Source: Flavobacteriales bacterium (lineage in GTDB: Bacteria; Bacteroidota; Bacteroidia; Flavobacteriales_D; Sanyastnellaceae). From it: a DNA stretch of 43,697 nt. Shown here in pieces: positions 2,086-43,697 of this stretch. Positions within the stretch are counted from its first letter, which is position 1. Each line of letters starts with the position of its first letter. The stretch lies in assembly GCA_042089975.1 (NCBI GenBank), contig JBELJW010000002.1, positions 1 to 43,697 of the forward strand, in the 5' to 3' direction. The position numbers and the translations under genes are program-made. The notes under the pieces are model-generated. The model had not been told where the DNA came from and made no database searches. It worked only from the letters and a program-made list of their open reading frames with translations.

Positions 2086-3809
2086 CGCATTGCGTCCAGA
2101 ACCTCCTGCTCCCCAATCTGCAACCCCCCTTCCTCGTCCAATGCCGATGTCGCCAAAACATGGGCTTTGCCCAGCGGCGCCCAACGGGCCGCCCAAAACG
2201 GTGCCTTGTCTCGGTAAAGCCCCACCACTGGCGTGCCCAACGCCGAGGCCATATGCAAAGGCCCTGTGCTGGAGGCAACCACCACATCCACATGGCCAAG
2301 TTCAGCCAAGAGCTCAGAAAGGTCCCATTTGCCGACCGCATCGACCAAGCCCGAGGAAGAGGACAAGCCGGCAAGCCAGTCTTCCAACGGAGGGCGTTCA
2401 CGCAAGGTCCCTGTGACCACCACCCGCCACCCGTCCGCCAAAAGCAAATCGGCAAGTGCCTGAAACCGAGGCACGGACCATCCGTTGGCAGACCCATGGT
2501 TCCCAGGATGCAGCAAGGCTGTAGGGGCCTCACTGACTTCTGACGCACCTGAGACAGGAGAGGGCCACCCCACCAAAGACGGCCAATCGCTTGGCTCAGG
2601 GAAGCGCCACGCTGCGGGGACGTTGAGCCCATGGAGCAGCCTCAATCCCTGCAGCGTTTCATGCACGGGACGACGTCTTCGGCTGTTCCACATTCGGACA
2701 TTGGCATGCCAAAGCCCCGACCATCTCCGCCCTGTGGCCACGCGGACCGGAACGTCGCATTTTGCAGCTGCAGCCATCAAAGTCGGCTCTGGAAAAGCAA
2801 ACACCACCGCATCCAAATTTTGCAACCACGACAGGGCATTCCCTTCGTCCTCTGGAGACCATGTTTGGACTTCATCTACGTGTTGAGACATGCTTGCCAA
2901 CGCGCTCGCATACGGCCGGCACACCCAAATGACTTCCATGTCGGGTTGATGCCACTTCAAAGCCCCGGCCAAAGGCAAGGTCAAAACATTGTCCCCCAAT
3001 CCATCTGTGCGCACCACAGCCACGCGTTTCAGCGGTCGACGGCGGTCCAATGCCGACACTTGCCGCCATTTCCAAAAGGCCGCCAGTGCACTCCATCTGG
3101 CAATGTCCCATCCCGTGCGTCCATCTCTCCATCCCGATTGGACCCCAAATTGCTTGGTCCACTGAAACACCGCGCGGGCCCATGGCTTGATCCATGAGCT
3201 CTTCGCGCCCTTGCGCACGGCGTCTCTTGCCCCAAGCATCGAAAATTGTGCCAGCTGCCTCCAATGGTCAGGACGACGTGCATAGCTGAAGTGCAACAGG
3301 TCCGATGCCATCGGCACCACCCTTCCCCCCGCGCTTGGGAGCCACTCCTCATGGAGCACCACCCCTGGTGCGGAGGTTTGCCACGCCCCCGCTCCTTTTC
3401 GCCAAAGTCGGGTTTTTCGGTCGGGGTACCAGCCGCTGTGGTGCACCCATTGTCCGCAGTAAGAGGTTTTCCGAGGCATGGACCATGCCACATCATGTTC
3501 CTCCAAAGTCGACACATCTTCCTTCCAATGCTTGATTTCCATTTGCAGGTCTTTGCCCAAGGCCTCGTCGGCATCCAGGCTCAGGACAAAAGGATGGGAT
3601 GCATGCTGGGCGGCCCAGTTTTTTTGGTCTGCATAAGAGGTGAAGGGACGGGAAAGAACCTTGGCGCCAAGGGACATGGCCAGATCCTGGGTGCCGTCGG
3701 TGGAGCCAGAATCCACCACCACAACTTCATCCACAACGCCCACAAGGGATGCCAAGCACCTTGGAAGGTTCTCAGCTTCATTGTGGGCGATGATGACTGC
3801 ACTCAGCAC
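2064..3809 (-). CDS. Bifunctional glycosyltransferase: N-terminal GT2 (WaaE/KdtX-like) fused to C-terminal GT9 (heptosyltransferase-like)
   Basis: The N-terminus reads MLSAVIIAHNEAENLPRCLASL..VDEVVVVDSGSTDGT..LSLDADE, a typical GT2 DxD-type fold. From about aa 265, VAVVRTDGLGDNVLTLPLAGALK, HPGNHGSANGWSV..RVVVTG and VVASSTGPLHMASALGTPVVGLY match GT9 ADP-heptose:LPS heptosyltransferase blocks. The frame is single and uninterrupted, with a GTG start at 3809. Confidence 0.75.
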   Translation of the reverse strand: MLSAVIIAHNEAENLPRCLASLVGVVDEVVVVDSGSTDGTQDLAMSLGAKVLSRPFTSYADQKNWAAQHASHPFVLSLDADEALGKDLQMEIKHWKEDVSTLEEHDVAWSMPRKTSYCGQWVHHSGWYPDRKTRLWRKGAGAWQTSAPGVVLHEEWLPSAGGRVVPMASDLLHFSYARRPDHWRQLAQFSMLGARDAVRKGAKSSWIKPWARAVFQWTKQFGVQSGWRDGRTGWDIARWSALAAFWKWRQVSALDRRRPLKRVAVVRTDGLGDNVLTLPLAGALKWHQPDMEVIWVCRPYASALASMSQHVDEVQTWSPEDEGNALSWLQNLDAVVFAFPEPTLMAAAAKCDVPVRVATGRRWSGLWHANVRMWNSRRRRPVHETLQGLRLLHGLNVPAAWRFPEPSDWPSLVGWPSPVSGASEVSEAPTALLHPGNHGSANGWSVPRFQALADLLLADGWRVVVTGTLRERPPLEDWLAGLSSSSGLVDAVGKWDLSELLAELGHVDVVVASSTGPLHMASALGTPVVGLYRDKAPFWAARWAPLGKAHVLATSALDEEGGLQIGEQEVLDAMRQLVLRE

Positions 3810-3814
3810 AATGG

Positions 3815-3822
3815 CGAAGGTA
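3815..3822 (-). promoter_or_regulatory. -7-like box TACCTTCG, 5 nt upstream of the GTG start of the GT2-GT9 gene
   Basis: The minus strand reads TACCTTCG-ccatt-GTG. The same 8-mer at the same offset precedes holB and the mlaE-like gene. It fits TAnnTTnG, against the Bacteroidota -7 consensus TAnnTTTG. Confidence 0.35.
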
Positions 3823-3879
3823 GTCGGGAACGGGGGTTTTTGTGGAAAACCTCTCGACCTGCTCGAAGGTGCGATGGTG

Positions 3880-3887
3880 TAATTTTG
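3880..3887 (+). promoter_or_regulatory. Perfect Bacteroidota -7 box TAATTTTG, 5 nt upstream of the purD ATG
   Basis: The sequence reads TAATTTTG-agtcc-ATG(3893). I saw no clear -33 TTG at canonical spacing. Confidence 0.45.
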
Positions 3888-3892
3888 AGTCC

Positions 3893-5170
3893 ATGAACGT
3901 GTTGCTCATCGGCTCAGGAGGCAGAGAACATGCCCTCGCATGGAAATTGCTTCAGAGTTCCTTCCTTACCCAATTGTTTGTCGCACCAGGCAATGCTGGG
4001 ACCGCGGAGTTGGCCACAAACCTCAAGGTGGATGTGAACAACCACAACGCCGTCAGCCGTGCGGTCAAAAAACACAACATTGGTCTTGTGGTGGTGGGGC
4101 CTGAAGCGCCTCTGGTGAATGGATTGGTGGACCACTTGCAGGATTGCGGGAAGCACCCAGAGTTGGTGGTCGTTGGACCGCGGGCTGCAGGCGCCCAGCT
4201 CGAGGGCAGCAAGTCCTTCGCCAAGGAGTTCATGAAGCGCCACAACATCCCAACAGCCGCGTACGGCGCATTCGACGGGGAACAGGTGAAAGAAGCTTTG
4301 GCCTTCCTGGCCAAAATGAAGGCCCCGTATGTGTTGAAGGCCGATGGCCTTGCGGCTGGAAAAGGCGTCATCATCACTGACGACCTCTCAGAGGCCGAGT
4401 CCGTGGTGAAGGACATGTTGTCTGGCGCTTCCTTTGGCGATGCCGGAAGGCGCGTGGTCATTGAGCAATTCATGGATGGCATCGAATGCAGCATGTTTGT
4501 CGTGACCGATGGCAAAGCCTACCACCTGTTGCCTTCCGCCAAGGACTACAAACGCATTGGCGAGGGAGACACAGGAGCGAACACCGGTGGAATGGGGGCC
4601 GTCAGCCCGGTGCCGTTCATGGATGCCGAGTTTCATGAAAAGGCGATCAACCAAATCATCATCCCCACCGTCAAAGGACTTGCAGCAGACGACATCCCTT
4701 ACAGCGGGTTCATCTTCTTTGGGTTGATGAAGGTTGGGGGCGATCCTTACGTGGTCGAATACAATTGCCGCCTTGGCGACCCTGAAACCGAAGTAATCGT
4801 GCCCCGCATCCAATCGGATCTCTTGCATTTGTTCGAGAACATGGGGGCGGGATTGCTGAGTGAATACCACCTGCAAATCGACCCCAAAACCTGTTCTACG
4901 GTGATGCTGGTATCTGAAGGCTATCCTGGCAACTACGCCAAAGGGAAGTCGATCACCGTTCCCGAACGAATGGAAAAGGACACCCTGCTCTTCCACAGCG
5001 GCACTGGAACATCAAGGGGAAATACCGTGACTTCGGGGGGTCGGGTGTTGGCCTGTTCTGCATTGGCAGCCACACCAGAAAATGCGCTCAAGAAGAGCTA
5101 CGCTTTGGCCGACGCCGTGTCATTCACCGGCAAAGCCTACCGCAAGGACATCGGACAAGACATCCTTTGA
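3893..5170 (+). CDS. purD: Phosphoribosylamine--glycine ligase
   Basis: The N-terminus MNVLLIGSGGREHALAWKL is the classic PurD start. ATP-grasp blocks are present (VLKADGLAAGKGV, EYNCRLGDPETEV). I moved the start from the ORF-track position 3842 to ATG 3893 based on the conserved N-terminus. Confidence 0.95.
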   Translation: MNVLLIGSGGREHALAWKLLQSSFLTQLFVAPGNAGTAELATNLKVDVNNHNAVSRAVKKHNIGLVVVGPEAPLVNGLVDHLQDCGKHPELVVVGPRAAGAQLEGSKSFAKEFMKRHNIPTAAYGAFDGEQVKEALAFLAKMKAPYVLKADGLAAGKGVIITDDLSEAESVVKDMLSGASFGDAGRRVVIEQFMDGIECSMFVVTDGKAYHLLPSAKDYKRIGEGDTGANTGGMGAVSPVPFMDAEFHEKAINQIIIPTVKGLAADDIPYSGFIFFGLMKVGGDPYVVEYNCRLGDPETEVIVPRIQSDLLHLFENMGAGLLSEYHLQIDPKTCSTVMLVSEGYPGNYAKGKSITVPERMEKDTLLFHSGTGTSRGNTVTSGGRVLACSALAATPENALKKSYALADAVSFTGKAYRKDIGQDIL

Positions 5171-5180
5171 ACGGCTGCCC

Positions 5181-5369
5181 TCACATCAAGGTCCCGTCCT
5201 TCTCGGCGCGGGAGTTGTACTTGGACTGAAGGCGCAACCAAAAGACGAGGCCCGCTCCTCCCAAGGCAATCACTCCCCAGTTCGCTCCGTCGCTGATGGG
5301 CAGCAGCAAAGTCTCAAAGGTCCATTCGATGAATTTGGCCACAGGGGTGATGATGTCTTGTGTGTTCAT
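5181..5369 (-). CDS. Small (62 aa) membrane protein, DUF6341-like
   Basis: MNTQDIITPVAKFIEWTFETLLLPISDGANWGVIALGGAGLVFWLRLQSKYN has one or two hydrophobic helices. It resembles the small conserved Flavobacteriia protein family. I chose the start at the internal ATG 5369, which has a TATTTTTG box 17 nt upstream. Confidence 0.5.
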   Translation of the reverse strand: MNTQDIITPVAKFIEWTFETLLLPISDGANWGVIALGGAGLVFWLRLQSKYNSRAEKDGTLM

Positions 5370-5386
5370 GGCGTTGGTTTGCGCCT

Positions 5387-5394
5387 CAAAAATA
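5387..5394 (-). promoter_or_regulatory. Perfect -7 box TATTTTTG, 17 nt upstream of the small membrane protein ATG
   Basis: The minus strand reads TATTTTTG-N17-ATG(5369). It lies in the 101-bp divergent intergenic region. Confidence 0.4.
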
Positions 5395-5460
5395 CGCAAG
5401 GCCACGAGAAATGAAACCTTCAAGGACATGAGTGCGTAAGGAGAAGCCAAACCCTATCAG

Positions 5461-5468
5461 TACGTTTG
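5461..5468 (+). promoter_or_regulatory. Box TACGTTTG, only 2 nt upstream of the adhesin ATG (ambiguous)
   Basis: This is a perfect TAnnTTTG match. The 2-nt gap to ATG 5471 is too short for a transcription start at that ATG. It may be chance, or the start may use flexible TSS selection. Confidence 0.2.
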
Positions 5469-5470
5469 CC

Positions 5471-8400
5471 ATGAGAGCGATCCTTACCCCCTTTGCGATG
5501 TTGTTTTCCCTTGTGATTTGGGGACAAACCTCACAACATCCTTTCCCCGAGTTTTCTCAAGAGACTGTGGATCAGGCCGTCTTGGCTTGGGAACAAAATC
5601 GTTCTTCTGCCCAAGAAGAGCCATCCGTTCCTCCCCGCGCCGCCGTGGAAATGGCCGCGACATTCAGCCGCGACATGTCCATCCATTCCGTAAGGCGCGG
5701 TGCATGGAATGATGCCACGACCTGGGATTGCCAATGCATTCCTTCGTTGGACGACATGGTGCAAGTGGACCATGAAGTCGGATTGTCCGAAGATGCCTTC
5801 TGCACTTCCTTGACCGTGACGTCCTCCGGCCAAGTGTTTGATGTGGAAGACGTCACATTGACGTTGGGCGGCGATTTGGTGGCCCTTCGGCCTTTGAGCT
5901 TGGACAGAGTGCATTTGACATTCACTGGAGAAGGCATCGACCACACCGTGGCCGCGCATGCAACGGTGGCCCGTTTGATCGCCCAACCTGGAGCGTCCCT
6001 CAGCCTTGAGGGAGATGTCCTGGTGACAGAGAGGGCCACGGCCGACAATGCCACCATCACGGTGGACCCTGCTGGCAGCTTGATCTTGGGCAATGGCCCC
6101 CTGGGGCGTGCTTCAGCCTTGCGTCCAGGAACTGGCGAAATCTTTGGCTTGGTGACCCGTGAAATCATTTTGCCGGCCACCGCCAACCACGGTACCTTGA
6201 ATACTGTGGAACAACGGGTTGCACTCGGCTTGGAAGGGGTCACAGTGGACCAGTTCATCGGAGACATCCCCACTTGGGGTTTTGACGGTGCCGACTCGTC
6301 GGAAGGATGGTCCAACTTGGGGTACTGGGATGTCAACTCTGCTTGGAGCTACAAGCAAATCACCTCCGTTCACGACTCTCTCCCTGTCGTCCAAGGAATC
6401 TACCTTGCATTGGCTCCTGCTGAATCCTACACGTTGACATTCAAAGGAACTTTGCCAAGCAAAGAGGTCACATTGGACGTCCCTGCAGACTTGTACCCAG
6501 CAGTTTTTGGCAACGCCCTCAACGCGCCATACAATCTCAATGCGATTGGCTCAGCAAGTGGGGACAAAGCCATCGATCTTAGCTGCTGGAACATCGAAAC
6601 TTTGCAATTTGACACCCATGTCCAAGGGCACTCGACGAATGGCCTCAATGGCGTCTTGAACCCCAACACCACTTGCCAGGTCCTGCCAAGCGAGACATTG
6701 GCCATTGCGTTCTCTTCCGATGATGTGGATCTGACGGAAGGAACGAATTTTGCAGAAGAACGCGGTCGAATTGTGTTTTCTCTTTCCAACCAGTCGGGTT
6801 ACTCGGACGAGGCTCTCCTGCTGCTGGCCGACAGTGCTTCCACGGGGTTCGTCTCCGCGGAAGATGGTCGAAACATCAAGTCTTGGTCTGCCTCATGTGA
6901 CCTGTACTTGTTGGACGAAAACAACAACCGTATGGCGATCAACCAAGTTGATTTTGCCCGTGAAGCCATGCATTCTTACGAACTCGTGCTTGCGGCCAAC
7001 AACCCCATTGACGGCGAATATTCTGTAGACGTCCGTTCGATGAATTGGACAGAGGGTTGTGTGCAGTTCACAATGGCTGGCGAGACCATAGCGCGTCCCC
7101 TCGTGGAAGGTCACTTGACCGATGTGACCCTCGATTCTCAAGCAAACAGCACCTACACCATTGGACAAGTGCACGTCATTCCTGAAGTCCGAGACATTTC
7201 GGTTTCTCCGGGATGTGAAGGGTTGGGCAGTCCAATGATCGAGGTCATCCCCAACGGGGAAGGGCCATGGACCGTGGCACTGACTGACGGCCAGGGCATC
7301 GCCTACGAAGGAGAAAGCGACAATGGATTGACGTGGGTGTTTGAGGACTTGCCCTCTGGCGAATTCATGTACGAAGTCCAGAATGAAGGCTCCTTTGTTT
7401 GTGGATCCCAGATGGGACAGCAACGTGTGATCCGTCCCACCAGGATGGTGTTTTCACACGACCTTCAGCACGACTGTGGTGAAGGAGGAGCAGCAATGGC
7501 ACAGGCCACAGGTGGCTCTGGAAGCATTGCCTATGCTTGGTCCAATGGCACAGAAGGAAATGCCGTGGAAGGAGTTGAGGGAGGCGAATACACCCTGGTG
7601 GCCACCGACGACTTTGGTTGCCGCGACACCCTCCACGTGACCGTATTGACTTCTCCAGAAGTCGATGTGATGGCCGTGGATGGAGATTGCGAGGGTTTGA
7701 GCCTTTCGGCCATTGAGGTCAACAGCGACAATGCAGATGCCAAGTGGGACGTGGAGATCCTCGACGCCTCAGGCGTTGTGGTGCGCTCTGCGATGGACAG
7801 CTCCACCCCCATCTTCTTCGATGAGTTGCCAACGGATGAGTACACCGTTCAAGCCTTGGTTTTGGGCGAGTATGGCTGCGATGCCCAACGTGAGGAGGCA
7901 TCCATCGTTCAGCCCATTCCCATGGCCCTTGAATTGGCGACTGTCACCCAGTGTGACGATGCCCAACTCGGATCCATTGAAGCTGCTGTGGAGGGAGGAA
8001 TGAATCCAGTGATTTCCGTTTGGAATGACAACGGAACAGAGGTCGACCCAGACGCATTGTTGGCGGGTCAGTACACCGTTGAGGTCCATGATGAGGACGG
8101 CTGCACCAAGGTGTCACAAGCCACTGTAGAGATGTCTCCACAAATGGAAGTGAACGTGCTCGACGCCAGCTGTCACGGCCAAGGCGAAATTGGGTTTGCA
8201 TTGGCCGGCGATGCTGGGACCACCTGGAACATCTCCGTGCAAAACGCTCAAGGAACCTCGATGTTTGAAGACGTGGCCTCCAACGGAACAGAGGAAATCT
8301 TGGGATTGGCCCAAGGCACCTACACCGTTTCCACCCAGTCCAATGCAGAGGACGGCTGTCCTGCCAAGACCACCATTGCAGCCATGGGCGAGGCTTCCGA

Positions 8401-9211: not shown

Positions 9212-9219
9212 GAACTTCG
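9212..9219 (+). promoter_or_regulatory. Degenerate -7-like box GAACTTCG, 4 nt upstream of the purQ ATG
   Basis: The sequence reads GAACTTCG-tccc-ATG(9224). The core (ACTTCG) and offset match the sORF and DUF2480 boxes. Position 1 deviates (G rather than T). Confidence 0.25.
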
Positions 9220-9967: not shown

Positions 9968-9975
9968 TAGATTTG
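9968..9975 (+). promoter_or_regulatory. Perfect -7 box TAGATTTG, 22 nt upstream of the dxs ATG
   Basis: It lies in the 81-bp purQ-dxs gap. A TTG sits at 9941-9943, 24 nt upstream, which is longer than the canonical -33 spacing. Confidence 0.4.
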
Positions 9976-11989: not shown

Positions 11990-11997
11990 TAGCTTCG
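11990..11997 (+). promoter_or_regulatory. -7-like box TAGCTTCG, 5 nt upstream of the DUF2480 ATG
   Basis: The sequence reads TAGCTTCG-gggac-ATG(12003). It has one mismatch (C for T at position 7) to TAnnTTTG. Confidence 0.3.
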
Positions 11998-20827: not shown

Positions 20828-20835
20828 CTAAGGTA
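20828..20835 (-). promoter_or_regulatory. -7-like box TACCTTAG, 4 nt upstream of the PSP1 ATG
   Basis: The minus strand reads TACCTTAG-gggc-ATG(20823). It lies in the 23-nt gap after the holB stop. Confidence 0.3.
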
Positions 20836-21987: not shown

Positions 21988-21995
21988 CGAAGGTA
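21988..21995 (-). promoter_or_regulatory. -7-like box TACCTTCG, 4 nt upstream of the holB ATG
   Basis: The minus strand reads TGA(receptor stop)-g-TACCTTCG-acag-ATG(21983). The octamer is identical to those upstream of the GT2-GT9 and mlaE-like genes. Confidence 0.35.
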
Positions 21996-21996: not shown

Positions 21997-24435
21997 TCAG
22001 AATTGTGCGGTGGCAGTCAACCGAAGGTTGCGCCCGGGTGCGGACAATCCCGACCCAAAGGTCCGGTAGTGAAGGTCCAGCAAGTTCATGGCTGCCACAC
22101 GGATTTCCAGCGTGTCGTTCAGCCGCCACGATCCCGAAACGTTCCATGTTGCCCAGGCCGGAGAACCCTTCGGCAGGGCCTCTTGCAAGTTGTCCGTGGC
22201 CCCGGGACCATAATCCTCTGCCCGTTTGGGCAAGGCATAACGGACGGTCGTGCTCCAACGGCCACGGGGGTGGGTTTGGACCCATTCCAACAGCCCAAAC
22301 GTCGGGGGGATGTGGGCAAGCGGCTGCGCGCCTTGCTCCAGGCTGTTGCCAAGCGTCCAGTTGACAACGCCTCGAAGGGTCGCACGCGGACCGAGGCGCG
22401 CTTGGCCCTCGAGGCGCGCGCCCCGCACCCAAGCACGGTCGATGTTCTGGTTCATTTGGATCCTCGCGGTGTCCCCGTCAATGGTCAACAAAGTGTCCCC
22501 ATTCATGGAGGCGTTGGTCTGGACAATCGCATCGTTCCAAAGACTGCCAAACACCGCTGCGCGAAGCACCAAAACGTCGCTGTTGGGCACATATGACCAA
22601 GTCAGCCCCTGTTCTGCGGTGTAGAGGTATTCCGGACGAAGGTCAGGGTTGGGGACGAGCACAAAACCCGCTTTCTCTCGAACCTTGCCCAGGTCGTCGA
22701 CATTGGGGTGACGGAATCCGCTGGACAAAGACGTCGCCCACGATCCGCGCGTCGACACCTTTCCAGTCCATGCGCCACTGGCGGTCAGGGCGCCTCCCTG
22801 TTGGCTCACCTCTCCGAAGGGCAGCGACAACCGGGTGGTGTCTTCAAAGGACGAATGCACCGACGCATGGCTGTAACGCAAACCGCCGCGAAAGGCATGC
22901 TTGCCTCGTTCCACGTGGGCCGAAGCAAATGCCCCCCATGTGGACATCGTGGAGCCACCATCGGCATATCGCGTCCATGCATCACCCTCCAGTCCAGAGG
23001 CCAAATCTTCGAAGCGCGCGGTCGATTCCACTGCGTTCCATTGGCCATCTGCACCAGCTTCCATTTTCCACTCCCCGACCCTGCCGCGCAGCACAGAGGT
23101 CAGTCCACCCACCAAGAGGGATTCCCTCTGAACGGTCCTCATGTCGCTTCCAAAACGCCGCTTGATGCGGCTTTCTTCAATCCTTTGTACGCTTGCGAGG
23201 GTCGTCCACGTCCAGCGCTCTGCCACGGCCCGTTGAAGGGTCAAAGCGGCCAAGGAACGCTGTTGCGGACCATAGGCCCATTCCGCCCACTTGGTGGTGC
23301 CTCCTGCCATGTCGTTGTAGACGTCAAAACGAGGCACATCCCCTGTGGTGCTGTGCTGCAGGTTCAAATCGATGAATCCACCCTTCCAATGGGCACGCAT
23401 CCTGTGTTGAAAGTCCCATTGATCGTAGGCCGTGGCCACTTGCAGCGTGGGGTCCGCATTCACCACCAGCGTGTCTTTGCCACCTTGGCGTACGACCGTG
23501 AACGGGACCAAGCCCCAAGTGCTGTCTCCGTGGGCCCGCCAACCTCCCATCTTCAGGTGACCAAATGCACGGCGGGTGACCTGCGTGACGGACCCCCAAC
23601 GAGGGGCCTGCACGTTGATTTCGGCGTGTCCCGCCCATCCTCCATTGACGGTGCTCCCTTGCGTGGTGAATTGGCCATGAGCCTCCAAAGAGTCGGTGCC
23701 AAATCGCGGCGCTTTGGTCATGAAGTGCACCACACCACCTAGGGCATCGCTGCCGTACAGCACACTGCTTGGGCCCATTAGCACGTCGGTGCGGACGACC
23801 GCAAAAGGGTCGATGCTTCCCGCATTTTGGACGTGGCCAGACCGGTAAATGGCGTTGTTCATGCGGACCCCATCGACCACGAGAAGGACCCTGTTGGCCT
23901 CAAAACCTCTGAGAACAGGGCTGATGCCGCCTTGTTGGCTCATCTGAAGATGAATTTGACCCGAACTCTCCAAAAGGTCGCCTGTGGTCTCTGTGGTCCG
24001 CACAGGCGCGCGCGCCACCATCCGGGTCAAGTCGGCCCCTGCCATGGCGGCCGTGGCGCTCCAAGACACGGCACTCGATTGCACCACAACCTCTTCGATG
24101 GCGAACGTGGTGGACAACAGATCCACGGTCCAAGTCGTCGCGCTTCCCGGCACCCCCCATTGGTCGTCGTGGCCCAAAGACTGTACCCGCAATGTGTCCG
24201 TGGGCGCCCAAGGCTCCATTTGAGCAATTCCAAAGGCATTGGCGGCGACGGCCGTTCCCGACGAGACATTTGCGACGGTGGCAAATGGCACTGGGACACC
24301 ATTGGTCAGGACTTCCACCGACCAGTCTTTTTGGGCCATCACGAGGGACGATGCCCCATAGCACGCCATCCCCATCCCCAAAAGGAAGAGGCGACGGAAC
24401 CAGCCTAGGTCAGGCAAAGAGGGCTTCCAGAACAT
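21997..24435 (-). CDS. TonB-dependent receptor (with N-terminal carboxypeptidase-regulatory-like domain)
   Basis: A signal peptide ends ...SSLVMAQ. The plug-domain blocks are ISPVLRGFEANRVLLVVDGVRMNN and VLYGSDALGGVVHF. A long beta-barrel region ends in a terminal aromatic (..LTATAQF). No SusD-like partner is adjacent. The start overlaps the recO 3' end by 26 nt. Confidence 0.85.
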   Translation of the reverse strand: MFWKPSLPDLGWFRRLFLLGMGMACYGASSLVMAQKDWSVEVLTNGVPVPFATVANVSSGTAVAANAFGIAQMEPWAPTDTLRVQSLGHDDQWGVPGSATTWTVDLLSTTFAIEEVVVQSSAVSWSATAAMAGADLTRMVARAPVRTTETTGDLLESSGQIHLQMSQQGGISPVLRGFEANRVLLVVDGVRMNNAIYRSGHVQNAGSIDPFAVVRTDVLMGPSSVLYGSDALGGVVHFMTKAPRFGTDSLEAHGQFTTQGSTVNGGWAGHAEINVQAPRWGSVTQVTRRAFGHLKMGGWRAHGDSTWGLVPFTVVRQGGKDTLVVNADPTLQVATAYDQWDFQHRMRAHWKGGFIDLNLQHSTTGDVPRFDVYNDMAGGTTKWAEWAYGPQQRSLAALTLQRAVAERWTWTTLASVQRIEESRIKRRFGSDMRTVQRESLLVGGLTSVLRGRVGEWKMEAGADGQWNAVESTARFEDLASGLEGDAWTRYADGGSTMSTWGAFASAHVERGKHAFRGGLRYSHASVHSSFEDTTRLSLPFGEVSQQGGALTASGAWTGKVSTRGSWATSLSSGFRHPNVDDLGKVREKAGFVLVPNPDLRPEYLYTAEQGLTWSYVPNSDVLVLRAAVFGSLWNDAIVQTNASMNGDTLLTIDGDTARIQMNQNIDRAWVRGARLEGQARLGPRATLRGVVNWTLGNSLEQGAQPLAHIPPTFGLLEWVQTHPRGRWSTTVRYALPKRAEDYGPGATDNLQEALPKGSPAWATWNVSGSWRLNDTLEIRVAAMNLLDLHYRTFGSGLSAPGRNLRLTATAQF

Positions 24436-25138
24436 CGTAGCTTTTCAATTCGCGTTGTTTGCCCAATTGTGCTTGAACGTACCTGTAGGCGCCAAGCACA
24501 AGAGGTTTGCGTTGGTCACGGGTCCAAGGAAGGCGCTGGAGTGAACCAAAATTCATGCCAGGAATTTGCCGGAGCAACGACACGACTTCTGGAGAAAGGG
24601 AGGACTTGGTCGCGTGCTCGGGATCCACATAGTCACCTGTGGCCACATCGAGCCACATCCCATGGTCATCGTCCAGCGGAGGCATCATGCCCAGGGCCTC
24701 GACCAGATGGGCCATGAATTTCACATGGATCCAAGGGACTTGTTCCTCCGTCTCCAGCCAATCCAATGCCTGGAGGGTCAGCTCATACACGTCCTCTGCC
24801 GGCGCCCCTTCCTCCAAGCAAGCCGACAAAACTTCCGCGACAAAGAAACCCACGGCGGATCGCTCAGGTGACCTCCGAAAGGTCAACTGAGGAGCTGCCC
24901 GTCGACATTCCTTTGCCATCCACAATCCCTGGCCCTTGCCCGGTTTCAAGTCGCTGATTTCGAGATGGGCCATGGGGTGCCAAAGGGCCTTTTGCTTGCC
25001 TGCATTTGCCACCCAAAGGGGAATGCACCCATGGGCCCGTGTCAACAACCTCACAATCCGACTGCGGTCGCCGTATGCCACACCACCCACCACCACTGCG
25101 TGGGCTTCAGATTCCATGGAAAGAGAAGTGTGGGACAT
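24410..25138 (-). CDS. recO: DNA repair protein RecO
   Basis: The OB-fold N-terminus reads ..AHAVVVGGVAYGDRSRIVRLLT..G. Length and layout fit RecO. I chose the start at ATG 25138 (MSHTSL...) rather than 25177, because a perfect TACTTTTG box ends 6 nt upstream of it. Confidence 0.75.
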   Translation of the reverse strand: MSHTSLSMESEAHAVVVGGVAYGDRSRIVRLLTRAHGCIPLWVANAGKQKALWHPMAHLEISDLKPGKGQGLWMAKECRRAAPQLTFRRSPERSAVGFFVAEVLSACLEEGAPAEDVYELTLQALDWLETEEQVPWIHVKFMAHLVEALGMMPPLDDDHGMWLDVATGDYVDPEHATKSSLSPEVVSLLRQIPGMNFGSLQRLPWTRDQRKPLVLGAYRYVQAQLGKQRELKSYDVLEALFA

Positions 25139-25144: not shown

Positions 25145-25152
25145 CAAAAGTA
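25145..25152 (-). promoter_or_regulatory. Perfect -7 box TACTTTTG, 6 nt upstream of the recO ATG
   Basis: The minus strand reads TACTTTTG-aacggc-ATG(25138). Confidence 0.45.
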
Positions 25153-25214
25153 CGGGGGGAGTCCAGTCAACATCCATGATTCCCAGCGGTTATCTTCACA
25201 GCGCAACCTTGACG

Positions 25215-31522: not shown

Positions 31523-31570
31523 GGGAAGGAGTGTCGGTGATCAATCTAAACTGTTGCACCACGGTCAAGC

Positions 31571-31587
31571 CGCGGGCTACGCCCGCG
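31571..31587 (-). terminator. Weak hairpin downstream of pyk (CGCGGGC-tac-GCCCGCG)
   Basis: A 7-bp GC stem with a 3-nt loop sits in the 85-bp pyk-ileS gap. No U-tract follows on the minus strand, so its function is uncertain. Confidence 0.25.
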
Positions 31588-31607
31588 AAGATAACCCACT
31601 CCCGGTG

Positions 31608-33047: not shown

Positions 33048-33153
33048 AAGGTGAGCGCGTAAGGTTGGCGAAGGTCGTTTCCTTCCACATGCAAAAATGG
33101 GTGGCGAAGTGGGTTCCACAATGGGGTCCCCCTCGAATTCCATGAACATTCTG

Positions 33154-35978: not shown

Positions 35979-36068
35979 GATAAATAGTTGTATTCAGTGT
36001 GAATTCGGCCGCAAATTAACGGCCTCTCTCTCGGACCTGACAAGGAATTGGGAAACTTTTGAACGATT

Positions 36069-37534: not shown

Positions 37535-38272
37535 TTAGCCAAGAAGCATTTGGGTCAGCAACAAATTGGCCACCATGACGATCACGACTGCATACACCAC
37601 AGCTTTGGTGCTGCTTCTTCCCACTTCCAAAGCGCCACCAGAAGTGAAGTAGCCGTGGTAGGCACTCACCGAAGAAATGATCAGTGCAAAAACACAGGTT
37701 TTGATCAAGGCATAGGTGACGTCAAAAGCATTGAAATCGATTTGCATGCCGTATTCGAAATCTGCTGCCGAACTCACCCCTGTGGAAACCCCCACCCACA
37801 TGCCTGCGCCGATGCCGAGGGCCATGCTGAGAATCACCAAAAAGGGAATGCATACGAGGGCGGCAATCATCTTGGGAAGCACCAGATATCCTGCACTGTT
37901 GACCCCCATGATCTCTAGGGCATCGATCTGCTCCGTGACGCGCATCGTCCCCAATTGAGAGGCAATGTTCGAGCCAACCTTTCCCGCCAAAATCACGGGG
38001 ATCAAGGTGGGACTGAATTCCAGAATCATGGTCTGTCGGACCGTGAAGCCAATCGTGTACACCGGGATCCATCCACCAATTTGGTGCGCTGTTTGAATGC
38101 AAATCACGGCCCCCATGAAGACGCTCAACAAAGCCACAATACCGAGGCTTTGAAGGCCAATGGCATTCATTTCCTCCACCAACAAGCGACGAAAAATTTC
38201 GCCTCGCTCAGGACGTCGAATCACGTGACGCATGAACGCAGCGTAGCGGCCGATGTGGAAAAACACACGCAT
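37535..38272 (-). CDS. ABC transporter permease, MlaE-like
   Basis: MRVFFHIGRYAAFMRHVIRRPERGEIFRRLLVEEMNAIGLQSLGIVALLSVFMGAV.. plus several further TM segments fit the MlaE/YrbE family (about 245 aa). I moved the start from 38809 to ATG 38272. The upstream 179 codons are Gly/His/Arg-rich antisense-type sequence. Confidence 0.8.
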   Translation of the reverse strand: MRVFFHIGRYAAFMRHVIRRPERGEIFRRLLVEEMNAIGLQSLGIVALLSVFMGAVICIQTAHQIGGWIPVYTIGFTVRQTMILEFSPTLIPVILAGKVGSNIASQLGTMRVTEQIDALEIMGVNSAGYLVLPKMIAALVCIPFLVILSMALGIGAGMWVGVSTGVSSAADFEYGMQIDFNAFDVTYALIKTCVFALIISSVSAYHGYFTSGGALEVGRSSTKAVVYAVVIVMVANLLLTQMLLG

Positions 38273-38276
38273 GGGA

Positions 38277-38284
38277 CGAAGGTA
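38277..38284 (-). promoter_or_regulatory. -7-like box TACCTTCG, 4 nt upstream of the mlaE-like ATG
   Basis: The minus strand reads TACCTTCG-tccc-ATG(38272). It lies back-to-back with the plus-strand TAACTTCG box, 5 nt away. Confidence 0.35.
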
Positions 38285-38289
38285 CAAGC

Positions 38290-38297
38290 TAACTTCG
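38290..38297 (+). promoter_or_regulatory. -7-like box TAACTTCG, 5 nt upstream of the sORF ATG
   Basis: The sequence reads TAACTTCG-cggtc-ATG(38303). Confidence 0.3.
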
Positions 38298-38302
38298 CGG
38301 TC

Positions 38303-38446
38303 ATGAACCTTCAAGGATTCAGACTTCTCCTGACCGCTTGTGCATTTCTCTTGCTCTTGGGGACAGGATGCACCACCACCCGTGGGACCAAGGGCAAGTG
38401 CCCTACCTGTCCCGAATGGTCGGTGGCACACCCCACCAATCGATAA
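38303..38446 (+). CDS. Candidate 47-aa lipoprotein sORF with CxxC motif
   Basis: The product is MNLQGFRLLLTACAFLLLLGTGCTTTRGTKGKCPTCPEWSVAHPTNR. It has a positively charged N-region, a hydrophobic core and Gly-Cys at a lipobox-like position. The mature part is a 25-aa Thr/Lys/Gly-rich peptide containing CPTC. It fills most of the otherwise unexplained 180-bp gap. Its TAA stop lies 6 nt before the next ATG. It is not listed separately in the ORF track, because it is the tail of the 37955-38446 frame. Confidence 0.35.
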   Translation: MNLQGFRLLLTACAFLLLLGTGCTTTRGTKGKCPTCPEWSVAHPTNR

Positions 38447-38452
38447 CTTCTG

Positions 38453-39547
38453 ATGGCCCACATTCCCCATACATACGCCGTCATCATGGCGGGAGGCATC
38501 GGCTCGCGGTTTTGGCCCATGTCCCGCTCTGCCCAACCCAAACAGTTTTTGGACATCCTTGGGACTGGACGCTCCCTGATCCGCATGACCTATGACAGGC
38601 TCGAAAAACTGGTGCCTGCAGACCACATCTTGGTCGTCACGAATGCACGGTACAAAGACCTCGTCGCCGCCCACCTTCCGGACCTGCCTTCTGACAACAT
38701 CTTGTGCGAGCCTTTCATGCGCAACACCGCCCCGTGCATCGCCTATGCCAATGCAGTGATTGCCTCTCGCGATCCAGAAGCCTCCATGGTGGTGGCCCCC
38801 TCCGACCATCTCATTTTGGACGAATCCGGGTTCCTAGAGGTGTGCAAGACGGCCTTGGACGTGACGCGCGAAACCACCAACCTCGTCACTTTGGGCATCC
38901 AGCCCACCAGGCCCGACACGGGGTACGGCTACATCCAATACGAGGAGTCCAGTGACCCTGCACGCGCTGAAGTGCGCCGTGTCAAAACGTTCACGGAAAA
39001 GCCCGATGCAGACACCGCAAAGACGTTTGTCCGGTCCGGGGAGTTTTGCTGGAACAGTGGGATCTTCGTTTGGTCCCTGCGGAACATTCAAGCTGCGTTT
39101 GAGGCCCACCTTCCCGACATGTTGCATGAATTCAAAGGACTTGACTTGGACAATGAAGCCCAGCTGAACACTGTCTTTGGGCACTGCGAGAGCATCAGCA
39201 TCGACTACGGGATCATGGAAAAGGTCGACCAAGTGCAGGTGGTCCTATGCGACATTGGTTGGAGTGATTTGGGCACTTGGGGCAGCCTCAAGCAGAAGCT
39301 CGAAGACGATCCGCAGGGCAATGCCAGCATCCATGTTGAATTGCGCGCTGTAGATGCAGGAAACAACTTGGTGGTGGGCTCGTCCCAAAATGGCGCTGTC
39401 CAAAAGCTTGTGGCCATCAAAGGCATCGACAACCTGATTGTGGTGGACACGCCTCACGCCCTGCTCATCTGCCCGGCAGAAGAAGAACAGTGGGTGAAGA
39501 CTTTGGTCGGAGAACTCAAGCAAGACAAAGGCGAGCCCTTGGTGTGA
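38453..39547 (+). CDS. Mannose-1-phosphate guanylyltransferase (short form, nucleotidyltransferase domain only)
   Basis: YAVIMAGGIGSRFWPMSRSAQPKQFLDILG is the sugar-nucleotidyltransferase G-loop. Further blocks are VVAPSDHLI and LVTLGIQPTRPDTGYGYI. At 364 aa it lacks the C-terminal cupin/PMI domain. Confidence 0.85.
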   Translation: MAHIPHTYAVIMAGGIGSRFWPMSRSAQPKQFLDILGTGRSLIRMTYDRLEKLVPADHILVVTNARYKDLVAAHLPDLPSDNILCEPFMRNTAPCIAYANAVIASRDPEASMVVAPSDHLILDESGFLEVCKTALDVTRETTNLVTLGIQPTRPDTGYGYIQYEESSDPARAEVRRVKTFTEKPDADTAKTFVRSGEFCWNSGIFVWSLRNIQAAFEAHLPDMLHEFKGLDLDNEAQLNTVFGHCESISIDYGIMEKVDQVQVVLCDIGWSDLGTWGSLKQKLEDDPQGNASIHVELRAVDAGNNLVVGSSQNGAVQKLVAIKGIDNLIVVDTPHALLICPAEEEQWVKTLVGELKQDKGEPLV

Positions 39548-39554
39548 GGGTGCC

Positions 39555-40949
39555 TCAACGGCGACCCACCATGTCCGAAGGCACCACCCATGCGTCGTAT
39601 TCCTCCTCTGTAAGATAGCCGGTGGACAAGGCCGCGACCTTGAGTGTGGTGCCCTCCGCATGTGCCTTGCCAGCAATCTCTGCGGCCTTGTAGTACCCAA
39701 TCTTGGTGTTGAGCGCGGTGACGAGCATCAAGCTGTTGTCCACCAACTCTTGGATGCGCTGCGTGTTGGCCTCCATGCCCTCAATACAGTGTGTTGCAAA
39801 AGACCTCGATGCATCGCCAATCAGGCGCGCAGACTCCAAGATGTTTTTGGCCATCATGGGCTTGAAAACGTTCAGCTCGTAATGTCCCTGGGTGCCGCCA
39901 ATGGTCACCGCCACGTCGTTGCCCATGACTTGGGCACAAACCATGGTCAGGGCCTCACACTGGGTGGGGTTGACTTTGCCAGGCATGATGCTCGATCCCG
40001 GTTCATTGGCAGGCAAAAGCAACTCTCCAATCCCCGAGCGCGGCCCCGAACCCATCATCCGGATGTCGTTGGCCACCTTGTTGAGGGACACGGCGAGCTG
40101 CTTGAGCGCACCATGGGTTTCCACAATGGCGTCGTGTGCCGCAAGCGCTTCAAATTTGTTCTCGGCCGTCACAAAAGGATGGCCTGTGGACGTCGCGATG
40201 TGCTTGGCCACGAGGACGTCATATCCTTCAGGAGTATTGATGCCCGTGCCAACGGCAGTGCCCCCCAAGGCCAACTGTTTGAGATGTGGCAAGGTGTTCC
40301 GCAACGCCTTCAACCCAAAGTCCAATTGGGCAACGTACCCCCCAAGTTCTTGGCCAAGGGTCAACGGGGTGGCATCCATCAAATGGGTGCGGCCGATTTT
40401 GACCACGTCGTCCCATTCGTTTGCCTTGGTGTTCAATGCAGTTCGCAATTGCTCCACACCAGGAATGGTGGTCTCCACCACCATGGCGTACGCCGCAATG
40501 TGCATCGCCGTGGGGTAGGTGTCGTTGGAGCTTTGGCTCTTGTTCACATCGTCGTTGGGGTGGACCGGCCGCGTCCCTTCCCCGAGGGTCCCTCCTGCAA
40601 GAACATGGGCGCGGTTGGCGATCACCTCATTCACGTTCATGTTGCTTTGGGTCCCTGAGCCCGTTTGCCACACCACCAATGGGAACTGATCGTCGAGCTT
40701 CCCTTGCAAAATCTCCTCACATGCAGCAGCAATCAAATCGGTTTTGGAGGCTTCCAACACGCCAAGTTCTCGGTTGGTCCAAGCTGCCGCCCTTTTCAGA
40801 TGCGCAAACGCGCGGACGATTTCCATGGGCATGGAGCCCACAGGGCCAATCTTGAAGTTGTTTCTTGACCGCTCGGTTTGCGCACCCCAAAACTTGTCGG
40901 CGGGCACGTGAACCTCGCCAAGTGTGTCTTTCTCAATCCTTGTCGACAT
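39555..40949 (-). CDS. fumC: Class II fumarate hydratase
   Basis: The sequence contains the [11 protein letters not shown] signature loop, the [12 protein letters not shown]-terminus and [14 protein letters not shown]. Confidence 0.96.
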
Positions 40950-40973
40950 GTTGGTATCGTGTGTTCGTTGGCA

Positions 40974-42080
40974 TCAGTCTTCGCTGTGGTCGGCCCCTGC
41001 CCCTTCGCCCATCAAGAAAGCGCGGAGAAACCCGTCGAGGTCGCCGTTCATTACTGCATCCACATTGGACGTCTCATGGCCAGTACGGACGTCCTTGACC
41101 ATCTTGTAGGGCTGCATCACGTACGAACGGATTTGGGAACCCCATTCAATTTTTTTCTTGTCGGCCTCAATCTCTGCGCGGGCTTCGTTGCGCTTGGCGA
41201 TCTCCATTTCGTAGAGTTGGGACTTCAACAGCTGCATGGCCTTCTCCTTGTTGCCCAATTGGGAGCGCGTTTCCGTGTTGTCGATGATGATGCCGGTGGG
41301 TGCGTGACGCAAACGAACGCCCGTCTCGACCTTGTTGACGTTTTGGCCCCCTGCGCCGCCTGAACGGAACGTTTCCCAAGTGATGTCAGAGGGGTTGACG
41401 TGGATGTCGATGGTGTCGTCCACAAGGGGGTACACGTACACGCTGACAAAACTCGTATGCCGTCTGGCATTGCTGTCAAACGGGCTGATCCGAACCAAGC
41501 GGTGCACCCCGTTTTCGCCTTTCAGCATCCCAAAGGAAAAGTCGCCAGAAAACTCCAAGGTCACTTGTTTGATGCCGGCCACATCGCCGTCTTGCAAGTC
41601 CAGTTCTTTCACCTTGTGGCCATTCTTCTCTCCCCACATGCGGTACATCCGCATCAACATCGACGCCCAGTCGCAGCTTTCTGTGCCCCCAGCTCCTGAA
41701 GTGATTTGCATCACGGCATTGAGGCTGTCCTCCTCTGCGCTGAGCATGTTCTTGAACTCCAGCTCCTCCACCGAGGTCAAAGCTCCTGCAAACGCTGCAT
41801 CCACCTCACCCTCTTCCGCTTCCCCTGCCTTCATGAATTCGTGGAGCACAAGCACGTCCTCCACCGCGGAGCCGCAAGCATCGTAGGCGTCCACCCAGCT
41901 TTTTTTGGTCCGCATCCGTTTCATCACCTTCTCGGCGGCCTTGGAGTCGTTCCAGAATTCTGGGTCTTGCGTCAGCTTCTCATCTTCCGCAATTTCCATT
42001 CGCTTTTGTTCCACCGCCAGGTACCCCTTCAATTCTTCCACGCGCTTGGCCAGGGAATGGATTTTGTCAACCGTCAACAT
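40974..42080 (-). CDS. prfB: Peptide chain release factor 2, encoded without programmed frameshift
   Basis: The SPF tripeptide (RISPFDS) and GGQ ([15 protein letters not shown]) are present. A single 368-codon frame reads through the region homologous to the E. coli slip site (..[11 protein letters not shown]..). Confidence 0.93.
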
Positions 42081-42084
42081 GAGG

Positions 42085-42092
42085 CAAAAGTA
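42085..42092 (-). promoter_or_regulatory. Perfect -7 box TACTTTTG, 4 nt upstream of the prfB ATG
   Basis: The minus strand reads TACTTTTG-cctc-ATG(42080). It lies in the 41-nt gap after recX. Confidence 0.45.
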
Positions 42093-42121
42093 GGTTCCGC
42101 GGGGTCAAGCCCCACATGTGT

Positions 42122-42613
42122 TCATCGGTCCGATGCCTCCTTCAAGGCCCGGAGCACCATGTGCTGAGGAAAACCGCGTTGCATCAACCACCTCAAGACC
42201 CTTTCACGATGCGCCTCCAAGTCTTCGGAACGTCGAGAAAGCAAGGCGTTTGCGGCTGCCTGCCACGCATGCTCGTCGAACGCGGCAATGGCGCGGTCGA
42301 TGTGCTTCGAGGCGACCCCTCGGGCAGAGAGACCTGCACGGATTTTCAAGGGGCCCCATGACTTGTGTTCCAAATGGACCCGCGCGTAGGATGATGCGCA
42401 ACGTGCGTCGTCCAAAAACCCTTCCGCCAATAGAAGGTCCATCCCACGTGCCACCCAGGACTCAGCTTCGGACGAAGTTGGGGGTGGATCCATTTTGCGC
42501 AGCACTTCCTGGAATTTCGCCAAAGCTTCCCGCTCGCTCCGGTCGCGCAAACCACACCACTTTCGAACCCGGTCCAACGCCGCCTTGAGGGCTTTATTCT
42601 GCTTGCTTTGCAT
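42122..42613 (-). CDS. recX: Regulatory protein RecX
   Basis: The helical-repeat protein carries ..ALKAALDRVRKWCGLRDRSEREALAKF.. near the N-terminus, and ..GFLDDARCASSYAR.. and ..RWLMQRGF.. further on. These are typical RecX repeats. I chose the start at ATG 42613 (163 aa) rather than 42742, which would overlap the divergent DUF349 start. Confidence 0.6.
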   Translation of the reverse strand: MQSKQNKALKAALDRVRKWCGLRDRSEREALAKFQEVLRKMDPPPTSSEAESWVARGMDLLLAEGFLDDARCASSYARVHLEHKSWGPLKIRAGLSARGVASKHIDRAIAAFDEHAWQAAANALLSRRSEDLEAHRERVLRWLMQRGFPQHMVLRALKEASDR

Positions 42614-42667
42614 GTCCACGGCTGAAAGGTGCACAGAAAACCCGTATTTTGCAGATTCTAACCATCC

Positions 42668-42675
42668 CAACTTCA
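42668..42675 (+). promoter_or_regulatory. Degenerate -7-like box CAACTTCA, 5 nt upstream of the DUF349 ATG
   Basis: The sequence reads CAACTTCA-ccgcc-ATG(42681). The core and offset match the other boxes, but positions 1 and 8 deviate. Confidence 0.15.
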
Positions 42676-42680
42676 CCGCC

Positions 42681-43697
42681 ATGCGGTCAGAAATTTTGCA
42701 ACGTATCCAAACGCTCCTCGGCAACGAGGACTTGGAGGCCATCCGAAAGGATGTGCGCAGTGAGATCGAGTCGTTTCGTTCCTTGATTCAAGAAGACTTC
42801 CGAACCCAACGCGAGGCTTGGGCGGAATCGGAGCATGATCCCGACGACAAATTCGAGTTTCAACCCAGCGAAGAAGAAATTGAATTCAACGGTCTTCTGA
42901 CGCAGTTCAAAGAGAGGGAGAAGGCCTGGAAGCAGAAGATTGCAGAGGAGCAACGCGCCAACTTGGAAGTGAAGCTCGCCTTGATCGATGAGCTCAAAAA
43001 AACCATCCAAGAAGAAGAGAACATCGGCGCGGCCTTTGCCCGGTTCAATGCGGTTCGTGAGAAGTGGGAAGCCACAGGGGATGTTCCTGGAGACCGCTAC
43101 CGCGAAGTGCACGATGAATACCATCGTTTGCGGGACGAGTTTTTCTACAACATCAACATCTACAAGCAGCTCCAAGAGCATGACTTGCAGAAGAATCTGA
43201 AGTTGAAAGAAGCCCTCATTGCCCAAGCCCAAACCCTCGAAACCATGGAGGGTCTGAAAGAACGTGAAGCGCTCGCCCGGTCCCTTCAAAAACAATGGTT
43301 CGACATTGGTCCCTCCCCGCGGGAGACCTTCCAAGCCATGGCGGACACCTTTTTTGGATTGACGCGGTCCACCTTTGATGCCGTCAAGGAGCACTACGAC
43401 GCCATCCGGTCCCAATTCGAAGTGCACAAAGGAGAAAAGGAAGGGTTGATCACAGCCATCCAAGAAGCCCTGACACAGGACATCGAAGACCACAAGGGGT
43501 GGCAAGCCGCCACAAAGCAAGTGGTCGCTCTGCAAGCAAAGTGGAAATCCACAGGCTTTGCAGGCAAGGAACACAACGAGGCTCTATGGGGACAATTCCG
43601 AGAGGCCGCCGATGTGTTCTTCGAGCGCAAACAGGTGTTCTACGACCGTGTCAAAGCCTCGAGCAAGGTGAGCAAGGAGAAAAAAATGGCCCTGATC
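42681..43697 (+). CDS. DUF349 domain protein, N-terminal 339 codons (3' end outside the window)
   Basis: The frame is open from ATG 42681 to the window edge. It is absent from the ORF track, presumably because it has no stop. The translation shows repeated ..F..L..KW...G.VP......L...F......FF.. helical units, for example AFARFNAVREKWEATGDVPGDRYREVHDEYHRLRDEFFYN and VVALQAKWKSTGFAGKEHNEALWGQFREAADVFFERK. These are characteristic of DUF349. Confidence 0.7.
   Translation, partial: MRSEILQRIQTLLGNEDLEAIRKDVRSEIESFRSLIQEDFRTQREAWAESEHDPDDKFEFQPSEEEIEFNGLLTQFKEREKAWKQKIAEEQRANLEVKLALIDELKKTIQEEENIGAAFARFNAVREKWEATGDVPGDRYREVHDEYHRLRDEFFYNINIYKQLQEHDLQKNLKLKEALIAQAQTLETMEGLKEREALARSLQKQWFDIGPSPRETFQAMADTFFGLTRSTFDAVKEHYDAIRSQFEVHKGEKEGLITAIQEALTQDIEDHKGWQAATKQVVALQAKWKSTGFAGKEHNEALWGQFREAADVFFERKQVFYDRVKASSKVSKEKKMALI

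Follow-up and report, generated by a model that had tools for sequence, protein, structure and literature searches.

Why should one octamer, TAnnTT[T/C/A]G, end only a few nucleotides before one start codon after another in a single stretch of bacterial DNA? The question is raised by a 43.7-kb stretch from a member of the Flavobacteriales (GenBank assembly GCA_042089975.1, contig JBELJW010000002.1, positions 1 to 43,697), hereafter the window, which has a GC content of ~57% and carries ~36 genes by Pfam, including typical Bacteroidota genes such as gldH, a TonB-dependent receptor gene and PKD/SprB-type genes. A sequence-only reading of this DNA had listed nine such octamers as possible -7 elements of the Bacteroidota primary sigma factor, which would place the transcription start on or next to the start codon, and had kept a translation-initiation or other start-proximal signal as the fallback. 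Judged from sequence and from comparison with related loci, the octamer represents the -7 promoter box of Bacteroidota sigma-A rather than a translation signal, and we consider it likely that nine or ten genes of the window are made as leaderless or near-leaderless mRNAs from boxes that abut their start codons.

All nine octamers could be read off the sequence where they had been listed, with the gaps that had been given between the last base of the box and the start codon. On the minus strand, TACCTTCG lies at 3815-3822 with a gap of 5 nt to the GTG (3809) of a GT2-GT9 glycosyltransferase gene, and again with a gap of 4 nt at 21988-21995 before holB (ATG 21983) and at 38277-38284 before mlaE (ATG 38272). 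The earlier remark that an exact 8-mer recurs three times is correct, as these are the only copies of TACCTTCG in the window and every one stands at a start. The same strand carries TACCTTAG at 20828-20835 (gap 4 to ATG 20823, PSP1) and two copies of TACTTTTG, at 25145-25152 (gap 6 to ATG 25138, recO) and at 42085-42092 (gap 4 to ATG 42080, prfB). On the plus strand, TAATTTTG at 3880-3887 precedes purD (gap 5 to ATG 3893, with GARS_N aligning from residue 1), TAGCTTCG at 11990-11997 precedes a DUF2480 gene (gap 5 to ATG 12003), and TAACTTCG at 38290-38297 precedes a small open reading frame (sORF) of 47 codons (gap 5 to ATG 38303). The tenth gene is purQ, whose variant box GAACTTCG, with G at -12, occupies 9212-9219 on the plus strand, 4 nt before ATG 9224. 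The start codon is ATG in eight of the nine genes abutted by a strict box, the exception being the GTG of GT2-GT9. The box of holB begins 1 nt past the stop codon that closes the receptor gene upstream of it. In the divergent pairs GT2/purD, recO/ispG and mlaE/sORF the boxes stand back to back, one per strand, within a shared 83-bp spacer for GT2-GT9 and purD and with only 5 bp between them for mlaE and the sORF.

To place these boxes in an evolutionary context, three sets of related loci were compared with the window: 74 loci around holB from genomes of related species (holB 57-99% identical, GC 40-64%), 80 metagenome loci around prfB (68-90% identical, GC 32-64%), and five purD loci whose genes had been called independently, designated L155-L159. 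The holB of the window shares 99% identity with its counterpart in an uncultured marine Flavobacteriales metagenome-assembled genome (MAG; CALKGQ010000018.1), and the close relatives found by the holB search are MAGs only; the purD of one relative sits on a 2.03-Mb contig.

One explanation to be weighed is that the pattern is an artefact of chance or selection, in which the starts picked are ones that a loosely defined octamer with TA chances to precede in GC-rich sequence. The total number of octamers is indeed unremarkable, with 19 copies of TAnnTTnG on both strands compared to 16.2 +/- 4.4 in dinucleotide shuffles, so that the octamer itself is not over-represented; the dinucleotide TA is depleted in the window. 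Moreover, TACGTTTG before a SprB/PKD gene and a weak copy before a DUF349 gene are not conserved. The placement of the octamer is another matter. Start codons were re-derived from coding potential and Pfam, without reference to the motif, yielding 35 starts on which the counts per gene start are based, and N-terminal Pfam alignments back the starts chosen for purD, DUF2480, GT2, holB and prfB. The octamer followed by four to six nucleotides and ATG or GTG occurs ten times, compared to 1.84 +/- 1.32 in shuffles (maximum 6, 300 shuffles), and the 3-nt slot before the 35 real starts holds nine octamers where 0.023 are expected (Poisson 5e-21), a positional enrichment of ~400-fold. A scan against shuffled and internal-ATG controls, a check that the sequence-only reading had put forward for the whole genome, found enrichment at starts and none at internal ATGs when run on the window and the related loci. 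Across the 74 holB loci, the gaps between boxes and candidate ATGs of gene-start regions peak sharply at 4 nt (106), with 5-7 nt forming a shoulder, and the peak is even cleaner inside the window's own clade, whereas internal in-frame ATGs of the same loci show no peak of boxes. Given this enrichment, the independent derivation of the starts, and the conservation of orthologous boxes across 150 related loci, we regard an artefact as having practically no chance of being the explanation. The 19 copies divide into nine at leaderless distance, three that are leadered and conserved, one that is doubtful, and six that are intragenic or antisense. That only ~6 of 19 fall in the last group, although shuffles predict ~16 copies overall, suggests that stray non-promoter copies are selected against.

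Conservation of the box follows gene families. Within the window's clade its presence is all-or-none, with boxes before holB in 22/22 members, PSP1 in 18/18, recO in 15/15 and DUF2480 in 15/15, and in none of 15-20 clade members before the TonB receptor gene, gldH, polA, dksA, lspA and others. Orthologous boxes are kept over a GC range of 40-64% while their flanks diverge, and the ATG (GTG for GT2-GT9) is held 3-7 nt past the box in every box-bearing orthologue, even where the next codons differ. For holB, 72 of the 74 related species carry a box at a gap of 3-4 nt (gap 4, 55 strict and 10 of the form TAnnTTGY; gap 3, 7 strict), and for PSP1 a box lies 3-7 nt ahead of the conserved ATGGGATG/ATGAGTTG in 60 of 60; the box-bearing orthologues start at ATG in 59/59 cases for holB and 60/60 for PSP1. 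The recO box is found at a gap of 4-6 nt in 15/15 members of the window's clade, and a sister clade instead has TAAATTCG 19 nt upstream. In the purD loci, the purD box is kept at a gap of 5-6 nt in L155, L157, L158 and L159, and L155-L157 retain for GT2-GT9 the box, the 5-nt gap, the GTG and the N-terminus VLS(A/V)VII. Two weaker copies had also been proposed, and their fates differ: that of purQ is conserved, with GAACTT[C/A/T]G at a gap of 4-5 nt in all five relatives (L155-L159, GC 41-60%), while CAACTTCA before DUF349 (42668-42675) is not. The mlaE box lies at a gap of 4-5 nt in relatives whose prfB is 75-92% identical and at 9-16 nt in more distant ones, and the prfB box, across the 80 metagenome loci (GC 32-64%), mostly lies 4-7 nt before the ATG and in others 21-26 nt upstream. 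A box-like element is also present 4-7 nt ahead of the orthologous ATG of the sORF in relatives.

The form of the octamer is that of a known promoter element. The Bacteroidota sigma-A (sigma-ABfr) promoter comprises a -7 element, TAnnTTTG, and a -33 element, TTTG, as described for Bacteroides fragilis, Flavobacterium johnsoniae, Flavobacterium psychrophilum and Bacteroides thetaiotaomicron. In F. johnsoniae the box extends from T-12 to G-5, 4-5 nt from the start site, with the refined consensus TAHHTTTG (PMC6847099), and the F. psychrophilum box likewise spans -12 to -5 (PMC9723704). The boxes of the window match this consensus, with nine strict copies of TAnnTT[T/C/A]G at starts and three leadered copies. 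Among 148 non-redundant sites, the seventh base is relaxed in the order C > T > A, and G is found at the two free positions in only 12 and 9 sites (in the window, one G among 18, in TAGCTTCG); this avoidance of G matches the TAHHTTTG of F. johnsoniae and supports the promoter reading. In addition, all seven tRNA genes in the related loci, comprising six orthologous tRNA-Gln genes and one tRNA-Thr gene, have TATCTTTG 10-36 nt upstream. The tRNA-Thr gene belongs to L156, whose purD is 79% identical to that of the window. No tRNA or other Rfam RNA was found in the window or in the 74 holB loci, and the tRNA genes came only from the loci added later.

These data bear directly on the fallback of the sequence-only reading, in which the octamer would be a ribosome-binding element other than Shine-Dalgarno (SD) within the mRNA, held at constant spacing to the start codon of transcripts that begin further upstream. 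The tight spacing to the start codon would suit such an element, as would the fact that several carriers follow co-directional genes across spacers of 13-45 nt with no terminator, and the Bacteroidota, lacking SD sequences, would need another signal (PMC6847099). However, the same box is kept at 4 to ~70 nt from the starts of ileS, ispG, recO, prfB and asd orthologues, which fits a promoter and not a ribosome signal, and it precedes tRNA genes. It also occurs as strand-specific back-to-back pairs in the divergent spacers of GT2/purD, mlaE/sORF and recO/ispG, fits an experimentally defined promoter consensus down to the non-G free positions, and, as read from the sequence, contains no GGAGG-like purine run complementary to the anti-SD. 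Finally, the mapped transcription start site (TSS) of holB in F. psychrophilum falls downstream of the box, which that RNA therefore does not contain. A translation signal is therefore already largely refuted and appears very unlikely.

The variable distance is best seen at the leadered boxes of the window. On the minus strand, TATTTTTG at 5387-5394 precedes a conserved gene of 62 aa (ATG 5369) by 17 nt and is kept in L155, L157 and L158. On the plus strand, TAGATTTG at 9968-9975 lies 31 nt before the conserved ATG of dxs (10007) and is kept in L017 and L155-L157. The sequence-only reading had seen leadered boxes only at these two places, dxs and a DUF6341-like gene; both boxes are conserved and the 17-nt gap was right, but the 22 nt given for dxs is probably too short, the conserved ATG 10007 being the more likely start, and ileS and several variant boxes are leadered as well. 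The ileS box, TATCTTCG at 31586-31593 on the minus strand, lies 63 nt before ATG 31522, and among the related species whose ileS 5' end is complete most keep TATCTTCG, its distance to the ATG being 4, 22, 34-38 or 55-70 nt. A probable variant, TATCTTCA at 25191-25198 on the plus strand, is divergent from the recO box and lies 10 nt before TTG 25209 or 16 nt before the ATG of ispG; it is kept in the window's clade, and its place is taken in other clades by TACTTTAG (16 nt) or TAATTTCG (4 nt). The asd box is likewise found at 5, 16 or 58 nt from the start across lineages. Altogether, ~8 leadered boxes are recognizable in the window, before the 62-aa gene, dxs, ileS, ispG, pyk, fabF, acpP and DUF349. 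For ileS, a mapped SigA TSS in F. psychrophilum lies behind TATTTTCG and gives a 21-nt leader (PMC9723704); as this promoter is of the TTCG type, TTCG boxes are genuine SigA promoters.

If the octamers are -7 elements (TAnnTT[T/C/A]G, -12 to -5) read by the Bacteroidota primary sigma factor, then at nine or ten genes RNA polymerase would start 4-5 nt after the G of the box, so that transcription would begin with the first base of the start codon (A or G) or 1-2 nt ahead of it. The resulting mRNAs would be leaderless or near-leaderless and would be translated from a 5'-terminal start codon, and holB, PSP1, DUF2480 and purQ, which look internal to operons, would each have a promoter of their own at the end of the preceding gene. 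The modal gap of 4 nt (range 3-7) is consistent with this geometry, placing +1 on or near the start codon; since the published spacing from box to TSS of 4-5 nt equals the modal gap observed here, a gap of 4 nt makes the A of the ATG +1. The outcome is also documented for an orthologue. In F. psychrophilum, TSS THC0290_T_0021 (207 reads, SigA motif) maps to position 24970, the first base of holB (CDS 23822..24970, minus strand) (PMC9723704). It thus coincides with the A of the start codon (distance 0), behind TATATTTG-CAAT-ATG, and the holB of the window has the same TAnnTTTG-N4-ATG layout. What is demonstrated, then, is that the motif is a promoter box, that its placement is conserved, and that the outcome is leaderless in one cultured orthologue. 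The proposal of -7 boxes with transcription starting at or next to the start codon agrees with the family-wide conservation, the match to published spacing (PMC6847099, PMC9723704), the tRNA boxes, the variable leaders of orthologues and the mapped holB TSS, and these data likewise disfavor the start-proximal signal.

It could also be argued that the boxes are real promoters but that the true translation starts lie further downstream, leaving ordinary leaders of 20-40 nt and making the abutting ATGs incidental. The recO gene has a second in-frame ATG 21 nt on, with RecO_N aligning only from residue 8, and the start chosen in databases varies for purD (442 versus 425 aa) and GT2-GT9. Nonetheless, an ATG or GTG is kept 3-7 nt after the box in every box-bearing orthologue, Pfam profiles begin at residues 1-5 in purD, GT2 and DUF2480, and leaderless holB has been mapped in F. 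psychrophilum. We consider downstream starts improbable, though somewhat less so than a ribosome-binding element.

With regard to how common such genes are, the nine strict boxes and the conserved purQ variant account for 26-29% of the 35 gene starts in the window, and the leaderless type makes up roughly half of its recognizable promoters. The flanking DNA of close relatives adds leuS (TAACTTTG, gap 4) and two conserved G-12 variants. By comparison, leaderless mRNAs make up 5.5% in F. psychrophilum (PMC9723704), 13% of transcripts in F. johnsoniae have leaders of 10 nt or less (PMC6847099), and 3.7% in B. thetaiotaomicron have 5' untranslated regions under 10 nt.

Several observations weigh against leaderless expression from these boxes, or against its being as frequent as these numbers imply. 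The start positions in this organism, and efficient translation from them, are inferred, the mapped 5' end being that of an orthologue. Gaps of 5-7 nt leave the exact TSS ambiguous, with leaders of 0-3 nt, and for GT2-GT9 a leaderless start at GUG would be required. Transcripts that read through from upstream genes probably supply the same cistrons in leadered form alongside the leaderless ones; in the 9-26 kb part of the window, intrinsic terminators and sigma-70-type promoters were at or below shuffle expectation, with none intergenic. The -33 TTTG expected ~20 nt upstream of the box is likewise missing: between -62 and -14, the profile of the 148 sites carries no information above background for this element, which bears out the earlier remark that no convincing -33 TTG could be seen, and no UP-like or AT-rich upstream signal appears in it. 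The -33 element is also weak in the global promoter set of F. johnsoniae (PMC6847099). As to frequency, the word 'pervasive' used in the sequence-only reading rests on 35 genes, 9-10 of them with such a box, and the share is an estimate from one 44-kb window plus flanks. When both sides were counted alike, taking strict boxes before ATG, a single vote for each family and no anchor genes, 5/32 families of the window compared to 14/229 in distant prfB loci carry an abutting box (Fisher p = 0.066), and a same-width control slot in the distant prfB loci gives 9/229; the excess in prevalence over distant Bacteroidota is thus only borderline, and is likely but not established.

That a sigma-A -7 box abutting the start codon produces a leaderless mRNA is known already in the phylum, even for holB, though it is usually rare there; the window shows this arrangement in an uncultured family and deeply conserved, and what is new is its prevalence, apparently several-fold above that of the models. 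Compared with the leaderless mRNAs of model Bacteroidota, the mechanism and geometry are alike, including the leaderless holB of F. psychrophilum itself, but the share differs, at 9-10 of 35 genes versus 4-13% of mapped transcripts, and includes the housekeeping genes prfB, purD, recO and mlaE as well as leuS in a flanking locus; the prfB of F. psychrophilum is long-leadered, unlike that of the window. The leaderless-rich Actinobacteria and Deinococcus-Thermus (GeneMarkS-2 group C; Zheng et al. 2011) resemble the window in having a promoter at a fixed short distance from a sizeable share of starts and a preference for ATG, and differ in that their signal is a Pribnow TANNNT at about -10 rather than a -7 box ending 4-5 nt before the start. 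Surveys of leaderless genes that relied on the Pribnow box say that such signals would be missed, and GeneMarkS-2 placed 90% of Bacteroidetes in group B (non-SD ribosome-binding sites). We found no report in the literature of a leaderless-rich lineage of Bacteroidota. Whether an uncultured marine Flavobacteriales family (GC 40-64%) expresses at least a quarter of its genes as leaderless mRNAs, including housekeeping genes and genes within co-directional strings, and would so be the first among the Bacteroidota to do so at levels like those of Actinobacteria or Deinococcus, by way of a -7 box, is in our estimate an evenly balanced question. Bacteroidota ribosomes do not use SD pairing and how they choose starts is still being worked out, so a lineage with many leaderless essential genes would be a natural test bed. 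Head-to-tail genes without terminators can each have their own promoter, which matters for operon prediction in streamlined marine genomes, and the box signature is a cheap means of putting start codons right, and of finding small genes, in MAGs of Bacteroidota.

Variation in the box itself is also informative. With respect to the sigma-A promoters of other Bacteroidota, the consensus, the avoidance of G, the implied spacing of 4-5 nt, and the use before tRNA genes and leadered genes are alike, and the F. psychrophilum TSS catalogue also holds TTCG and shifted TAnnTTGY variants (PMC9723704); the present boxes differ in that C is the commonest seventh base in the GC-rich clade (TAnnTTCG), in the conserved G-12 variants, and in the lack of a detectable -33. 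Conserved boxes with G for T at -12 precede purQ (GAACTTCG), pyk (GACCTTCG at 33069-33076 on the minus strand, 21-nt gap) and a deacetylase-like gene (GACCTTCG again). A DUF4271-like gene likewise has a G-12 box, GA(A/C)CTT(T/G)(C/G), for which low-GC relatives have TAAATTGC. The loci used for the G-12 variants were L076, L078, L080 and L155-L157, and T-12 seems dispensable in the window's clade. At holB, the shifted TAnnTTGY replaces TAnnTTCG at the same position in low-GC relatives (L020-L024, L028, L029, L063, L069 and L072), and within the window TAnnTTGY also occurs before acpP (36011-36018, minus strand) and DUF349 (42645-42652, plus strand). This form is motif SM5 of F. psychrophilum, without an assigned sigma factor there (PMC9723704); its exchange with TAnnTTCG between orthologues is a hint that the primary sigma factor recognizes SM5.

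The ileS box is joined to a perfect palindrome, TATCTT-CGCGGGC-GTA-GCCCGCG (31570-31593, minus strand), that extends across the end of the box and the predicted start site. This palindrome, which may serve as an operator or a 5' hairpin, is kept in the GC-rich clade (L001-L019, L031 and L044), and other clades have different hairpins at this position.

The 47-codon sORF downstream of TAACTTCG (38303-38446, plus strand) encodes a lipoprotein-like protein of 47 aa, in which a signal peptide and a lipobox Cys are recognizable together with a CPTCPEW motif. The gene is kept divergent from mlaE in ~24 related loci, with the lipobox Cys and a CxxC motif (CPTCPEW, CNCPQWS or CGTCDAY) retained, and its product has no Pfam hit. 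By its sequence conservation, it is a real gene for a putative small lipoprotein, of a kind easily missed by annotation.

Two further start-proximal octamers were considered as candidates and set aside. TACGTTTG at 5461-5468, with a gap of 2 nt before the SprB/PKD gene, is treated as a chance copy, as its TA is not kept in L155 or L156 and its geometry is wrong. The DUF349 copy CAACTTCA, not being conserved, is not taken as a promoter; the conserved GTATTTTGCA/GATATTTGCA ~28 nt upstream is the likelier one.

Several database gene calls at these loci also merit comment. Box-bearing genes are mis-started: the purD of the window is stored as 442 aa (GTG 3842), compared to 425 aa in most close relatives (80-86% identical), and the GT2-GT9 calls in L155 and L156 are extended to non-conserved upstream ATGs. 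The prfB gene (40974-42080, minus strand) is one uninterrupted open reading frame (ORF) in the window and close relatives. The programmed frameshift of prfB depends on SD-anti-SD pairing. Several more distant relatives (L104, L108, L115, L118 and L122) keep the classical +1 frameshift site AGGGGGTATCTTTGAC, implying that the window's clade has lost the frameshift. Lastly, the listed recX ORF (42122-42742, minus strand) overlaps the start of DUF349 (42681-43697, plus strand); recX more likely begins near 42610, at an ATG that would leave 70 bp of divergent spacer between the two genes.

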